Source: an uncultured Ruficoccus sp. (GTDB lineage: Bacteria > Verrucomicrobiota > Verrucomicrobiia > Opitutales > Cerasicoccaceae). From it: a stretch of DNA of 64,000 nt. A model generated the notes under the pieces. It was not told the DNA's origin, ran no database searches, and worked only from the letters and a program-made list of their open reading frames with translations. Below, one piece after another: positions 1 to 57,308 of this stretch. The number at the start of each line of letters is the position of its first letter. Positions within the stretch are counted from its first letter, which is position 1. The stretch is from contig OZ223518.1 in assembly GCA_965140785.1 (NCBI GenBank), positions 64,001 to 128,000 of the forward strand. The letters are read 5' to 3'. Both the position numbers and the translations under genes were made by a program.

Positions 1-235
1 GGGAGACGTGGTCGCCCTTCCACAGGATCGTGCCAATGGCCTCATGCCCGCCGACGAACGGATAGGCCGACAGCCCCCAGTCGTTGTCGAGCATGGACAG
101 GTCGCTGTGGCAGATACCGCAGTGCTCAACCGCGATCAACACATCGTCCGCGTCCAGCTCGTCCGCCTTGTACTCGAAGGGTTCGAGAGCGGCTTTGGCT
201 TTCGGGGCGGCGTAGGCTTTGATCGTTGTGCTCAT
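1..235 (-). CDS. Zn-dependent alcohol dehydrogenase (Ahr/YjgB-like), 5' part, runs off the window
   Basis: Manual translation [22 protein letters not shown]...CGICHSDL...[10 protein letters not shown] contains the Zn-ADH motifs CHSD and GHE. The ATG overlaps the TAA of the upstream gene. Not in the ORF track. Confidence 0.9.
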
Positions 236-714
236 TAAGCGTTTGAAGGTTTGAGAGTTTGAGGGTTTGAGAGTTGATGGGCGGGGCTGAGGTCGAACGC
301 TTCGTCTGGTTCGCGGAGTTCAGCGGGCTTGAATTTCATGCCCTTGATCTCTGACTTCGCCAGGTAGTTGATGAAACCGCTCAGGAGGGTTTCGGCTTCG
401 GAGGCGAGTGCATAGGCCAAGTCGAATTGCTTTTGAGAGACATAAGACACGTCCAACATGACGTAGAGCTGGCTCTTGACTTCGGCCAGCGAGCCGCGGG
501 CAATGTACAGGAACTGCAAAAACTCCCGGTTCCCACTGCGCCCAAAGCCCTCGGCGATATTAGACATGACCGAAATACTGCTGCGCCGAATTTGATCGCA
601 CAGAGCAAAGTCCCGGACGACAGCTTCGGCGGACGTGAGACCATAGACCAAGCGCGAAAGCTCGCGAGCTTTCTGCCAGGCCTGAATCTCTTCAAATGTC
701 CGGATGCTTGCCAT
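235..714 (-). CDS. Four helix bundle protein (23S rRNA intervening-sequence protein / Avd-like family)
   Basis: Family motifs [30 protein letters not shown] and [16 protein letters not shown]. The C-terminal tail is encoded by the octamer repeats. Confidence 0.9.
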
Positions 715-755
715 CAACTGAACTTTCAAACTCTCAAACAATAAACTCTCAAACT
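241..755. repeat. Inverted octamer tandem arms (GTTTGAGA)n at 241-277 and (TCTCAAAC)n at ~723-755 flanking the four-helix-bundle gene
   Basis: gtttgaag gtttgaga gtttgagg gtttgaga versus ctttcaaac tctcaaac aataaac tctcaaac. Confidence 0.85.
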
Positions 756-769
756 CCCTCAGCCTCGGC

Positions 770-2237: not shown

Positions 2238-2267
2238 AAAAAAGCCCGGGGTGGTGGCCCGGGCTTT
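2238..2267 (-). terminator. Rho-independent terminator
   Basis: Minus strand reads AAAGCCCGGG-ccaccac-CCCGGGCTTT followed by a T tract. Confidence 0.75.
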
Positions 2268-2306
2268 GCAGTGCTGGTTGTCGAAGCGGTGTTTATGCGA
2301 GCACGA

Positions 2307-2393
2307 CTACTGCGGTATCTTGTTCTCGCAGCAGGAGAACAGGAAGGTTGCTGCCACACACACCGCTACGGTTATGAGTGCTACGCTAAACAT
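2307..2393 (-). CDS. Putative 28-aa hydrophobic small protein MFSVALITVAVCVAATFLFSCCENKIPQ
   Basis: Manual translation ATG..TAG with one hydrophobic stretch, followed by the terminator at 2238-2267. Confidence 0.45.
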   Translation of the reverse strand: MFSVALITVAVCVAATFLFSCCENKIPQ

Positions 2394-4455: not shown

Positions 4456-4887
4456 TTAAGCCGGGGCATACGTAGCCGAGTTCTTGGAGTCTTCGTCCAC
4501 CGTCACGGCGGTGACCCAGGCGCGGCCCTGGGAGTCGGCGCGTACGAGCTGGTCGAAAATCCCATGCAGGTGCATGGCGAGGCCCTCGCAGGAGCAGCTC
4601 TCGACCAGATAGACCTTGAAGGCCGCCGGGCAGGCGGCCACGAGGCGTTCGCGCAGGGGGTCGTCGTGATTGAGGACGCAGGCGTGGTCGAGGTTTTTGT
4701 CGATCCACTTGCGCAGGTACTTGAGCTTGCCGAAATCGACCACAAAGCCGTTGGCGTCGGGCTCGCGGCAAGCGAAGGTGACGTGGAGCGTCCAGTTGTG
4801 GCCGTGCAGCAGCGCGCAGTGGCCGTCGTGGCAGTGCTGGCGGTGGGCGAAGGGAATATCGGAGTAGGTCTTGCGGCAGGTCAGCAT
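4456..4887 (-). CDS. queD: 6-carboxytetrahydropterin synthase QueD
   Basis: AHR...[25 protein letters not shown]; overlaps queC. Confidence 0.88.
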
Positions 4888-5591
4888 GACGGGAGCCTCC
4901 AGTCGTTGGCGATCAGCTCGGAAAGGGCGGGGGCGTGGTCGGCGTAGGGCGTGGGGTCCTCGACCCCGGCCAGGTGAAAAGCCTCGCGGCGCTCGATGCA
5001 GGTGCCGCAGCGGCCGCAGTGTTTTTCCCCGCCCTGATAGCAGGACCAGGTGTCGGCAAAGGGCACGTCCAGCTCGGCGCCGCGGGCGACGATGTCGGCC
5101 TTGGTCAGCTGGACATAGGGGCGGTGGACGAAGACCTCGTGCCAGTCGGCCATGCGGATGACCTTGTCGAGCGCGTCGGTGAACTCCTCGCGGCAGTCCG
5201 GATAAATCGTATGGTCCCCGGCGTGGGCGGCGTAGGCGACGCAGTCGGCCTTGGTCGAGATGGCCCAGCCGGCGGCCAGGGAGAGCAGGATCATGTTGCG
5301 GTTGGGTACGACGGTCTGCTTCATCGAGTCCTCGGCGTAGTGGCCTTCGGGCACGGCGATGGACGGGTCGGTCAGGCTGCTGCCACCGAGCAGACCGGTT
5401 ACCGAACTGAGGTCGGCCACGCGGTGCTCGATACCCAGGCGCTTACAGATGGCAGCGGCGCAGGTGATCTCCTTGTCGTGGCGCTGGCCGTAGTTGACGC
5501 TGAGGGCGGCCGCTTCGTGGCCGTTTTTCAACAGATCGTATAAGAGGACGGTCGAGTCCAGACCGCCGGAATAAACAACTATCGCTTTCAT
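4881..5591 (-). CDS. queC: 7-cyano-7-deazaguanine synthase QueC
   Basis: SGGLDS, YGQRH, VPNRN, YPDCR, WSCY...HCGRCGTC. Confidence 0.95.
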
Positions 5592-23662: not shown

Positions 23663-23861
23663 GGCTTTCGCAGTTTGGGAGTTCAGAGTTTGAAGGTTTG
23701 AAAGTTAAGGGTATGCGAGTCGGGCGTCGCGTCTAGTCAGAAGGGCAATTTCTCCGGGAGATCGCGGCTGTTCGTTCTTATGTCTGTTTGATTGCGGGTT
23801 GAGCAGCTTCGTTGTGGACAGGAGCGGTCGCCCACATGTCCCGGGGTAGCGGCCTTTCTGG

Positions 23862-34299: not shown

Positions 34300-34535
34300 C
34301 CGCAAAGGCGCAAAGACGCAAAGGTGAGAGAACGAGGGCTACGACTCAACTTAAGGCGTTCTAGCCACGGATGAGCACGAATGAAACGCGGAATATCGTT
34401 TTCCGAATGAAATCAGCCGTGTTTATCCGTGAAATCTGTGGTTAAAAAAACTCTGCCCGGATGCGCGCGAGCACCGCACCTGACCCAATGCTCCGCTATG
34501 TGCTTTCTTTTCGCTCTTCCCGGTCTTCCTGTTAA
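34298..34535. repeat. Cluster of three short-period repeat families
   Basis: cgcaaagg cgcaaaga cgcaaagg; ccacggatgagcacgaat versus atccgtgaaatctgtggtt; ctcttcccggtcttcctgttaaa. Confidence 0.7.
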
Positions 34536-44296: not shown

Positions 44297-44314
44297 GATG
44301 TAGAAAAGTGGTTA

Positions 44315-44344
44315 AACCACAGAGGGCACAGAGTGCACAGAGGG
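44315..44344. repeat. Solo 9-mer tandem arm (cacagag..)3 upstream of the gatB start
   Basis: aaccacagagggcacagagtgcacagaggg. Confidence 0.8.
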
Positions 44345-55443: not shown

Positions 55444-55602
55444 AAATGGTTTAATAGTTAAATGGTTGAATGGCTATTGGGGAAAATGGCGGAAGAGGTA
55501 ATTGCCGCGCTGGCATATAGGTGCGGGTTCATGGGGCTGGTTTTTCCGCCAGCCGCCGCGCTTGCTTACTAACCATTTAGCCATTCAGCCATTTGACCAT
55601 TT
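55444..55602. repeat. Inverted octamer tandem arms between rplT and pheS, empty
   Basis: aaatggtt taatagtt aaatggtt gaatggct versus aaccattt agccattc agccattt gaccattt. Confidence 0.85.
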
Positions 55603-57112: not shown

Positions 57113-57308
57113 GCCGGTTTATATATCTAGTGTGGGCTCTGCGCTTCCAAGCTGCGAGCATCCAGAGCCATTTAAGAAAAATTATAGCCCCGAAAAGGCA
57201 CGAAGATTCACAAAAAAGTTTTGAAATGATCGGTGCCTTTCAGCGTTCAGTGATTTTATCCGTGTGCATCCGCGTTTCATCCGCGGCTACAATAAAAATT
57301 GAAACGCT

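Follow-up and report, generated by a model that had tools for sequence, protein, structure and literature searches.

On the minus strand of the window, by which we mean the whole 64,000-nucleotide stretch of DNA that was analyzed, a gene for a four-helix-bundle (4HB) protein is enclosed by complementary arms made of short tandem words, and arms and gene together fill the spacer between sufC and an alcohol dehydrogenase (ADH) gene from stop codon to start codon (Table 1). We favor, with moderate confidence, the interpretation that the unit at 241-754 represents a copy of a DNA cassette that is insertable, carries a single gene, and is of the type known from rRNA intervening sequences (IVSs), and that this unit is co-transcribed with its host operon.

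Table 1. Features of the sufC-ADH junction and its surroundings (positions in the window)
Feature	Position	Strand	Details
fur, further upstream host gene	1606-2052	minus	
sufC (ABC_tran), upstream host gene	770-1528	minus	same strand as cassette; stop codon 772-770
5′ arm	721-754	minus	four degenerate 8-nt units, GTTTGAGA / GTTTATTG / GTTTGAGA / GTTTGAAA, plus terminal GTT
Cargo gene, 159-aa four-helix-bundle protein, PF05635 / TIGR02436	235-714	minus	ATG 714-712
3′ arm	241-275	minus	AAC plus (TCTCAAAC / CCTCAAAC / TCTCAAAC / CTTCAAAC), complementary to 5′ arm
TAATG, cassette-gene stop overlapping ADH start	233-237	minus	stop TAA 237-235; ADH ATG 235-233
ADH, zinc-type alcohol dehydrogenase (ADH_N), downstream host gene	2-235	minus	runs past window end

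The full 5′ arm (GTTTGAGAGTTTATTGTTTGAGAGTTTGAAAGTT, 34 nt, (GTTTGARR)n) begins 15 nt after the sufC stop codon and ends 6 nt before the ATG of the cassette gene. The full 3′ arm (AACTCTCAAACCCTCAAACTCTCAAACCTTCAAAC, 35 nt, (YYTCAAAC)n) is followed by gct and then by TAATG, with 5 nt between the arm and the ADH start codon. A repeat search recovers eight arm pairings between 235-278 and 721-756, including one of 19 nt at 89% and one of 12 nt at 100%. In the predicted fold of the minus-strand RNA from 225 to 775, the arms are paired in the minimum-energy and centroid structures alike, and the energy of -199.9 kcal/mol compares with -177.4 ± 6.9 kcal/mol for shuffled sequences (z = -3.25), none of 100 being as stable. 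The pairings and the fold confirm the proposal of a first-pass annotation, which had suggested the folding check, that complementary arms enclose the entire open reading frame (ORF), and the stem-plus-ORF layout of rRNA IVSs to which it had pointed is present here between protein genes.

That annotation was also correct in noting that the 3′ arm is translated and that the stop codon overlaps the ADH start; the last 12 residues of the protein are encoded by the arm. In the orthologues of two related genomes, G002 and G003, the stop codon stands directly before the 3′ arm, and the arm lies inside the ORF in this genome because that stop codon has been lost. Judging from these sequences, the translated arm is a local stop-codon loss and no feature of the element, and the protein tail that it partly encodes is predicted to be disordered. 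On the minus strand from 2052 to 235, no promoter-like site and no plausible terminator were found, the sole terminator-like match being weak and within a gene (465-448). Thus, fur, sufC, the cassette, and ADH plausibly form one transcription unit. A metatranscriptome contig (X5, from an RNA library) matches 370-565 with one difference, and we do not take it as proof of transcription in this organism.

The cargo protein matches the profiles PF05635 (111.2 bits, cut-off 33.8, E = 3.6e-32) and TIGR02436 (107.1 bits, cut-off 24, E = 5e-31). Its structure model (pLDDT 86.7) has helices at residues 11-27, 36-57, 62-88, and 94-120, followed by a low-confidence tail at residues 121-159. Crystal entries of the PF05635 family comprise five chains, and Foldseek with the model retrieves XCC0516 (2gsc, TM 0.89-0.93) and BT_0352 (2rld, TM 0.80-0.87); 2gsc is also found by phmmer (E = 6e-14). 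The next fold retrieved is Avd of diversity-generating retroelements (DGRs), with which the protein shares the four-helix-bundle fold (4dwl, TM 0.86 normalized to Avd, rmsd 1.8 over 108 columns). The fold search, together with the accessible portions of two papers, bears out the statement of the first-pass annotation that the family is tied to rRNA IVSs, to RNase III (PMC4990558), and to Avd (PMC10053308). However, sequence identity to Avd is 12%, and no reverse transcriptase (RT) gene or template/variable repeat pair lies beside the cassette gene, whose neighbors are fur, sufC, and ADH. Codon comparisons with orthologues show the protein to be kept by purifying selection (dN/dS of 0.09-0.14 at dS of 0.6-1.15). 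Phage records contain no relatives of the cargo protein at E = 1e-5.

Arms of this kind recur with the gene family. The second PF05635 gene of the genome, whose neighbors we take to be cysD- and cysN-like genes, has different cognate arms of its own (GTGCTTAGT x2 versus ACTAAGNAC x2, 16 nt at 94%). The cognate arm score exceeds that of all 600 shuffles in 21 of 30 loci of relatives. With wider search windows, and with a threshold set at the 99th percentile of the local alignment scores of 3000 non-cognate pairs, cognate arms are above threshold for 20 of the 30 copies found in relatives and for 54 of the 77 taken from many phyla, the remaining 10 and 23 loci falling below it. Local alignment scores replaced RNA duplex energies (110 x 130-nt windows) because the latter do not separate cognate pairs from non-cognate pairs (means of -51 and -41, with heavy overlap). 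The check on whether paralogues carry arms of their own, also suggested by the first pass, is therefore positive in this genome, in its relatives, and in loci from many phyla.

The arms are also conserved and co-vary with the protein. Among the three genomes that share the cassette (this genome, G002, and G003), 33 of 37 aligned columns of the 5′ arm show no change, versus 87 of 134 four-fold sites (p = 0.004). Where two loci have like arms (55 of 1431 locus pairs), the protein similarity is 0.529, compared to 0.392 for the others, a difference reached in none of 2000 permutations. These alignments show that arms and protein travel together across phyla. The first-pass annotation had suggested that the protein may bind or mobilize the arms of its own cassette.

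A second gene family, PDDEXK_3 (GxxExxY) with a nuclease fold, rides in hairpins of the same kind, as the flanking sequences show. All five PDDEXK_3 genes of this genome lie between cognate tandem-word arms, with scores of 44-59 against a shuffle maximum of at most 27. For four of them, the arm words recur elsewhere in 5-21 gene-less arrays (controls 0-2), and for the fifth in three (control 1). Among 41 relatives, PF05635 and PDDEXK_3 occur together in 22, one without the other in 3 and 5, and neither in 11 (Fisher p = 4e-4). Genome size and kinship confound this co-occurrence, and most of the 11 genomes lacking both families are of 0.8-2.6 Mb.

In this genome, most arrays of the word family to which the arms at the sufC-ADH junction belong carry no gene, which might suggest that a gene was inserted by chance into a pre-existing REP-like hairpin and that gene and arms are unrelated. 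We consider such a coincidence extremely improbable, given that non-cognate pairs would yield cognate-like arms at 1% of family members rather than at the proportions given above, that every PDDEXK_3 gene of the genome is flanked likewise, and that arms and protein co-vary.

The gene-less arrays themselves are numerous. This genome holds 54 arrays of NNTCAAAC units at 40 loci, with both arms present at 12 loci and the G-rich arm first in all 12; another 38 arrays share 10-mers with the arm in the window, and arrays sit directly before start codons. The arm-word census was redone with 10-mers (at least 4 hits per 80 nt) because a 9-mer census, in which reversed words are as frequent as true words, was too noisy. 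A census of GTTTGAGA gives 38 true-word arrays and 36 for the reversed-word control, which is uninformative, since reversal of this word yields the same unit in rotated form; a pattern control (97 versus 53) suffers likewise. Joints from 275 to 721 and from 276 to 718 in contigs of X1 and X2 were considered as traces of excision and rejected, with only 20-36 nt on their shorter side; the simplest explanation is that they represent further gene-less hairpins of this word family.

Dispersal differs among genomes and among cassettes. Arm-like BLAST matches number 37 in each of G002 and G003, but only 4 and 3 in G001 and G004, where all of them are host-gene flanks. The words of the second 4HB cassette of this genome recur in one other array, and the arms of a cassette in another genome (L038 in G035) are hardly dispersed, with two short extra matches (14 of 23 candidates scored). 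Two array families of this genome, TCATTGG and CCATTYAR, have no gene-bearing copy in the 91%-complete assembly. The sister genome G001, which has two PDDEXK_3 genes, lacks a 4HB gene yet carries 4 arrays in 800 kb, versus a mean of 12.3 when this genome is resampled; values as low as in G001 come up in 2% of the resampling trials for arrays and in 8.6% for hairpins. This is suggestive, from one genome, of fewer arrays where the 4HB gene is absent.

The sufC-ADH junction is occupied differently among related genomes. G001 has a 27-nt spacer without arms, which constitutes a clean empty site, in G004 the place is taken by a ~115-nt hairpin with other arms and no gene, and G002 and G003 have the same cassette as this genome. 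In a member of another genus (G012), the closest protein (54% identity) is encoded directly after sufC with GGTTCGTAA-type arms. At a second junction, six genomes carry 4HB cassettes of three arm types and two protein subfamilies, and this genome carries a gene-less hairpin. Comparison of these junctions shows that arms and gene are inherited, lost, and exchanged as one unit. Among the hallmarks of insertion sequences and MITEs, inverted ends are present; no target-site duplication is seen beside the arms relative to the G001 empty site, where the flanks have diverged, and no transposase or recombinase family was found in the cassette cargo.

Another possibility is that the arms are host regulatory sites, whose words would bind a global regulator, namely the autoregulated 4HB protein, with the gene-less pairs as its regulon. 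Similar sequences have been interpreted in this manner in Geobacter metallireducens, where "predicted global regulator binding sites" of classes 1-3 number 24, 21, and 8 pairs, with one pair located between proB and proA (Aklujkar et al. 2009, PMC2700814). Like the arms described here, the sites in the available text of that paper consist of 3-5 tandem words of 7-9 nt, in opposite-strand pairs at variable distance and in several classes per genome, and the pairs lie at gene junctions, including those inside operons (PMC2700814). Unlike the cassettes, they are presented in that text as regulator sites without a gene, and it draws no connection to PF05635 or PDDEXK_3 genes (PMC2700814). The conservation of the arm words relative to four-fold sites, the co-variation of arms and protein, the arrays directly before start codons, and the purifying selection on the protein are likewise consistent with a regulator. 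However, the sites are gained and lost between sister genomes at housekeeping junctions, including one with a clean empty site, and unrelated words occupy the same junction in related genomes. In addition, a gene family with a nuclease fold is enclosed in like fashion, and the same cassettes with the same words occur in many phyla, which fits transfer better than it fits a regulon. We therefore regard the regulatory explanation as unlikely, though worth keeping in mind.

Cassettes are co-oriented with their neighbors. The upstream neighbor is on the same strand at 44 loci and on the opposite strand at 2, and the downstream neighbor at 36 and 7, respectively. The median gap is 3 nt between stop codon and 5′ arm and 7 nt between 3′ arm and the following start codon. 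Of 74 cassettes, 67 have the G-rich arm in first place, and so do all 13 gene-less pairs of this genome. Mismatches between arms, when read in the sense RNA, are G:U in 86 cases and A:C in 89 (p = 0.88), and because there is no bias toward G:U, selection on an RNA stem rather than on a DNA repeat is not indicated.

Arms that abut stop and start codons, the co-orientation of cassettes and neighbors, the predicted stem (with the z-score given above), the RNase III gene in the genome, and the precedent of rRNA IVSs in the portions available of PMC4990558 are also what would be expected if the host had selected the hairpin for operon punctuation at the RNA level, as an RNase III site or mRNA stabilizer, with the gene as a passenger tolerated in the loop. 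This explanation appears improbable, since mismatches are without G:U bias, G001 lacks any element at the same junction, the loops hold two specific gene families rather than random passengers, and the passenger is under strong purifying selection. A purely RNA-based reading is further countered by the membership of the arms in a DNA repeat family dispersed through the genome. Thus, of the intervening-sequence reading of the first-pass annotation, the layout and the cognate arms of paralogues hold, whereas its purely RNA-level form is at odds with the dispersed DNA repeats, the empty site, and the missing G:U bias.

The order of the arms invites a further speculation, in which an Avd-like protein acts with an RT supplied in trans, and G-rich words arise by templated slipping synthesis at the 3′ ends on both sides of a break. 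After its own family, the closest fold to the cargo protein is indeed DGR Avd (4dwl and 8ube, including Avd in complex with RT; TM 0.82-0.86), the G-first order is nearly universal in cassettes and complete in the gene-less pairs of this genome, and the genome has one RT gene. However, a link to a neighboring RT was rejected, as the sole RVT_1 match of the genome lies on another contig (C39), with no arrays beside it. Moreover, PDDEXK_3 cassettes have the same arms without an Avd-like protein, and the G-first rule has simpler possible causes, such as start-codon avoidance or Rho loading sites. We judge a retroelement-like origin of the arms to be very unlikely.

The cassette reading that we favor can be compared to several known systems. 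ORF-bearing IVSs of 23S rRNA have been described from Coxiella burnetii (helix 45), Leptospira, Xanthomonas, and Brucella (Warrier et al. 2016, PMC4990558). As far as the accessible text of that paper extends, the similarities include the cargo family (S23p = PF05635 in both), terminal complementary sequences that form an ORF-enclosing stem of ~28-30 bp, tandem words of seven or eight nucleotides directly before the start codon, and placement inside a longer transcript (here a probable one) in a host with an RNase III gene (PMC4990558). In Coxiella, RNase III cuts in mid-stem, at heptamer repeats that precede the same gene family (PMC4990558), whereas cutting by RNase III is what we infer for the present element. 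Other differences are that the cassette lies between sufC and an ADH gene rather than in an rRNA helix, that its arms belong to a dispersed family of gene-less hairpins, and that its protein is under purifying selection, unlike the Coxiella ORF, which the portion seen of that paper describes as decaying and probably not translated (PMC4990558). An Rfam search of 1-2400 gave no family match except a weak leader hit elsewhere, and no description of such a cassette outside rRNA was found in the literature.

In REPIN/RAYT systems, a gene is flanked by inverted, palindrome-forming repeats that are also scattered without the gene in intergenic regions. The cassettes resemble them in that inverted repeats frame a gene and also occur, gene-less, at scattered places in the same genome, but they encode a four-helix bundle or a PD-(D/E)XK fold instead of a Y1 (IS200/IS605-like) transposase, and the tandem words of 7-9 nt that make up their arms vary among the cassettes of a single genome. 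We rejected a connection with Y1 transposases, as both Y1_Tnp genes of this genome are located elsewhere and have other, unrelated inverted ends and no arrays. Short tandemly repeated (STRR) heptamers are found between genes of heterocystous cyanobacteria. A plasmid copy of the cargo gene family in Nostoc PCC 7120 is followed by five CCTCTGC-type heptamers on its 3′ side; unlike the present cassette, it has no matching 5′ arm in the stretch examined, which ends in the apparent 3′ end of another gene. No statement tying STRR to the PF05635 family was found in the literature.

How might such a cassette reside within an operon? In the mechanism we propose, a four-helix-bundle gene framed by inverted arms of degenerate 7-9-nt tandem words would be transcribed as part of the fur-sufC-ADH message. 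The arms would pair into a stem of ~30 bp, which host RNase III (the genome has one rnc-type gene) may cut as it does in rRNA. Cutting would separate the cassette RNA from the host messages, and insertion may be tolerated because the cassette RNA is freed in this way. Gene-less hairpins would be derived from, or spread by, gene-bearing copies, in a relationship resembling that of REPINs to RAYTs.

We also put forward, tentatively and as the less probable side of the question, a broader proposal that a single widespread class of mobile cassettes with hairpin arms carries PF05635 and PDDEXK_3 genes as its two cargos, and that the classic rRNA IVSs would be a special case of this class, the one that landed in rRNA. 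Each protein would recognize its own arm words and spread or maintain gene-less hairpins, and the class might account for many intergenic tandem repeats, including STRR and the Geobacter sites. If so, the polarity in which the G-rich arm comes first would reflect the way in which arms are made or tolerated, and because each cassette would pair a protein with its own word, nucleic-acid binding specificity would be measurable.

The function and origin of the S23p ORF and of rRNA IVSs were, according to the available text of the 2016 Coxiella paper, a puzzle dating back more than 25 years (PMC4990558). PF05635 and PDDEXK_3 are large orphan families, and tandem heptamers between genes have either been taken for regulator sites or gone without explanation. 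If all are cassettes of one kind, then three loose ends would become a single testable system. For genome annotation, cassettes alter spacer lengths and place stems before start codons, and in the present case the cassette ORF extends into the start of the next gene. If the proposal is correct, these elements would be very small mobile or semi-mobile units that live inside operons without breaking them, insulated from the host message by an RNA stem.

On the minus strand of the window, a gene of the PF05635 four-helix-bundle (4HB) family separates sufC from an alcohol dehydrogenase (ADH) gene and is enclosed by complementary arms built of tandem 7-9-nt words. The first-pass annotation had proposed that these arms can pair around the whole ORF, and a repeat search found eight pairings between the 5′ and 3′ arm stretches. 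In the predicted fold of the 551-nt transcript, the arms pair in the minimum-energy and centroid structures alike (z -3.25; none of 100 shuffles equal). The 3′ arm had also been described as translated, with a stop codon overlapping the ADH start, and the minus strand does read TAATG at 237-233, where the TAA of the 159-aa ORF overlaps the ADH ATG. Because the arm coordinates, the overlap, the pairings, and the fold agree, this observation was right in every detail. The orthologues in G002 and G003, two other genomes of this genus, stop at a TAA directly ahead of the 3′ arm. In the window this codon is gone and the frame continues through the arm to the ADH start. Judging from these sequences, translation of the window's 3′ arm is an accident. 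An AlphaFold model of the ORF (pLDDT 86.7) predicts four helices up to residue 120, followed by a low-confidence tail.

Features of the window cassette and its surroundings, and PDDEXK_3 loci of the source genome (G000)
Feature	Position	Strand	Remarks
fur	1606-2052	minus	
sufC	770-1528	minus	
5′ arm, GTTTGAGAGTTTATTGTTTGAGAGTTTGAAAGTT	754-721	minus	15 nt past sufC stop; 6 nt ahead of the ORF's ATG
159-aa ORF	714-235	minus	PF05635 E 3.6e-32, TIGR02436 E 5e-31 (profile searches)
3′ arm, AACTCTCAAACCCTCAAACTCTCAAACCTTCAAAC	275-241	minus	terminal part of ORF; 5 nt ahead of ADH ATG
Zinc-type ADH, start portion	from 235	minus	
PDDEXK_3 locus, contig C34	G000:C34:83723-84263 (L194:788-1180)	minus	
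PDDEXK_3 locus, contig C3	C3:997-1338		
PDDEXK_3 locus, contig C25	C25:201567-201911		
PDDEXK_3 locus, contig C10	C10:105508-105849		
PDDEXK_3 locus, contig C39	C39:231616-231965		

Between fur and ADH, no promoter-like site was found on the minus strand of the window, and the one terminator-like match there is weak and in-gene (465-448). A strong terminator-like hairpin precedes fur (2267-2241, minus strand). Upstream of fur, within 2238-2377 (minus strand), there is a sub-threshold match to Leu_leader (RF00512; 27.9 bits, the gathering score being 50; E 0.005).

The source genome carries one further PF05635 gene, whose neighbours we take, from reading the sequence, to resemble cysD and cysN. 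That a paralogue might bring cognate arms of its own was borne out: this gene has different ones, two copies of GTGCTTAGT versus two of ACTAAGNAC, matching over 16 nt at 94%. The family is present in 25 of 41 genomes searched from the same order, and complementary runs of 7-9-nt words, the word differing per locus, were seen by eye in nearly all of the 31 relatives' loci fetched. To score the arms, each upstream flank was locally aligned with its downstream flank in reverse complement. At 21 of 30 relatives' loci, the score of the cognate pair was higher than that of any of 600 shuffles, one locus cut by a contig end having been dropped. Scanning species genomes across the bacteria added 80 PF05635 loci in many phyla. 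With wider windows, and with four of the 111 loci set aside because their flanks were too short, 54 of 77 wide-scan loci and 20 of 30 relatives' loci scored above the 99th percentile of 3000 non-cognate pairs. The period is 7 in 46, 8 in 10, and 9 in 4 of 62 clearly periodic arms.

For the 74 loci with arms passing the threshold, neighbours were identified solely by their open reading frames. The upstream one shares the strand of the cassette gene in 44 cases and is opposite in 2, ambiguous in 8, and not found in 20; the corresponding downstream counts are 36, 7, 13, and 18. The 5′ arm begins a median of 3 nt past the upstream stop, and the next start lies a median of 7 nt beyond the 3′ arm.

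Gene and arms are both under constraint. Between the three same-genus 4HB orthologues, dN/dS is 0.09-0.14 at dS 0.6-1.15, and the protein is therefore in use, whereas the ORF of the Coxiella 23S rRNA intervening sequence (IVS) is reported to be decaying in the relevant passages of PMC4990558. Across the same three genomes, 33 of 37 columns of the 5′ arm (p 0.004) and 30 of 35 of the 3′ arm (p 0.02) are invariant, compared with 87 of 134 four-fold sites of the 4HB gene and sufC. Thus, the words themselves are kept, not merely the ability to pair. Among the 54 armed wide-scan loci, protein similarity is higher (0.529 vs 0.392; reached by none of 2000 permutations) in the 55 of 1431 locus pairs whose 5′ arms are alike. 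A GTGCTGA-armed set, drawn from Chloroflexota, Planctomycetota, Gemmatimonadota, and other phyla, is among these pairs. Arms and gene thus move together.

Arm words are also dispersed through the source genome. Runs of at least two NNTCAAAC units form 54 arrays at 40 loci. Both arms are present at 12 of these loci, one of them doubly and one being the cassette, and GTTTGARR comes first and YYTCAAAC second in 13 of 13 arm pairs. Many of the arrays stop a few bases short of a start codon, and 38 other arrays have 10-mers in common with the window's arm. BLAST with the locus gave 37 matches in each of G002 and G003, for the most part scattered and of arm size, and host-gene flanks only in the related genomes G001 and G004. 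Joints observed in DNA contigs are most simply explained by other hairpins of this word family. The family's longest array (G000:C18:108002-108283) comprises 12 perfect GTTTGAGA units, separated by ~160 nt from 3 complementary units, the last of which stops 6 nt short of a start codon, and at G000:C29:4681-5479 a ~160-codon gene lies between two complete gene-less GTTTGARR hairpins (4681-4833 and 5322-5479). A short solo array of this family in the window, GTTTGAAGGTTTGAAAGTT (23687-23706), adjoins an apparent minus-strand start codon.

Other word families of period 7-9 in this genome are TCATTGG, GCTTAGT, CGCAAAGR, CCATTYAR, CACAGAGNG, and GCCACAAAA, and some enclose a second kind of cargo. 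The CGCAAAGR-armed hairpin on C34 holds a 130-aa gene matching PF13366 PDDEXK_3 (E 2e-41) and TIGR04256 GxxExxY (E 1e-42). Cognate tandem-word arms (CGCAAAGR, CGCGGATGAAA, GGAAGGAC..., GSCACAAAA, and CAGAGGCA) flank all five PDDEXK_3 genes of the genome, with scores of 44-59 versus a shuffle maximum of at most 27; the C39 copy is interrupted by a TGA codon. For four of these genes, 5-21 gene-less arrays with the same words occur elsewhere (reversed-word controls, 0-2), and for the fifth there are 3 (control, 1). A gene-bearing copy is thus known for five of the seven word families seen. None was found for TCATTGG and CCATTYAR in the 91%-complete assembly.

In 41 relatives, 22 have both gene families, 3 only PF05635, 5 only PF13366, and 11 neither (Fisher p 4e-4, confounded by kinship and genome size). 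G001 has two PDDEXK_3 genes and no 4HB gene. In 800 kb sampled from it there are 4 arrays, 1 of which has a partner, versus means of 12.3 and 4.7 in equal G000 resamples, which were as low in 2% and 8.6% of trials, respectively. The window itself contains a solo array of the C34 family, GGGGATTAACC(GCAAAGRC)3 (34300-34324), followed by C3-family words (CCACGGATGA.../...CCGTGAAATCTGTGGTTAA; 34350-34440) in a gene-less mosaic of arm fragments, as well as a short solo C3-family array, ATCCGTGTGCATCCGCGTTTCATCCGCGG (57260-57290), and a CCATTYAR hairpin pair of period 8 (55459-55593).

Comparison of junctions reveals comings and goings. At the sufC-ADH junction, the window's cassette also occurs in G002 and G003. 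In G004 the junction contains a gene-less hairpin of ~115 nt made of other words, and in G001, a 98%-complete genome of the same genus that lacks PF05635 genes, it is an arm-free spacer of 27 nt. In G012, of another genus, the gene directly following sufC encodes the closest of all proteins sampled (54% identity), including the unusual C-terminal extension, and is armed with GGTTCGTAA-type words. At a second junction, between a gene ending ...LTGL and one starting MIK..., six genomes of three genera have 4HB cassettes (L039, L040, L041, L043, L053, and L060) that fall into three arm types and two highly divergent protein subfamilies; in G000 (C26:35037-35227), the site is taken by a gene-less hairpin built from a fourth word family. 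This junction, occupied in seven genomes, is a hot spot for these elements. A solo array of period 9 in the window, GGTTAAACCACAGAGGGCACAGAGTGCACAGAGGG (44300-44344), has no partner within 900 nt and belongs to the family of the hairpin at G000:C26:35040-35225.

Background given in the first-pass annotation holds up. The Coxiella 23S rRNA IVS, as treated in parts of PMC4990558, ties the family (S23p) to such sequences: it has a 28-bp terminal stem cut mid-stem by RNase III, and three to four tandem heptamers directly ahead of the S23p start codon. By analogy, RNase III processing of the cassette RNA would be a reasonable step. Fold relatedness to Avd of diversity-generating retroelements, stated in a passage of PMC10053308, was reproduced by a fold search with the predicted model of the window protein, which ranked 2gsc and 2rld first and then 4dwl (TM 0.86). 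For Geobacter metallireducens, a section of PMC2700814 catalogues pairs of tandem octamers, nonamers, and heptamers that enclose no gene and treats them as putative sites of global regulators, and an excerpt of PMC3424549 gives PDDEXK_3 function as unknown. In open-licence PMC and bioRxiv full text, a search that possibly missed subscription journals, we found no account of PF05635 or PDDEXK_3 genes between tandem-word arms outside rRNA, nor any tying them to gene-less intergenic repeats. Relatives occur on 29 plasmid records, mostly cyanobacterial, and in no phage record at E 1e-5. On Nostoc sp. PCC 7120 plasmid alpha (L201, NC_003276.1:3400-4517), five CCTCTGC-type heptamers follow an annotated four-helix-bundle gene; no matching array lies upstream, where another gene's 3′ end abuts.

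The first-read arm is G-rich (G>C) at 67 of the 74 armed loci (opposite, 2; ties, 5). An inverted repeat reads the same from either strand, so this polarity belongs to the hairpin and does not depend on gene direction. Start triplets are rarer in the second arm (1.8 vs 5.8 per 100 nt). The rule may have to do with how the next gene is translated, with keeping nascent RNA clear of a free C-rich tract, or with how the arms are made. If selection acted on the stem in the sense RNA, mismatches should lean to G:U, and no such lean was seen in 2648 aligned pairs from the 74 loci (86 G:U vs 89 A:C, p 0.88). The rRNA-IVS-like reading proposed earlier is partly supported: the stem-plus-ORF layout is present in an operon spacer, and a purely RNA reading is disfavoured. 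Our preferred reading of the window element is a DNA cassette of the rRNA-IVS type, with one gene and hairpin arms, residing in an operon spacer.
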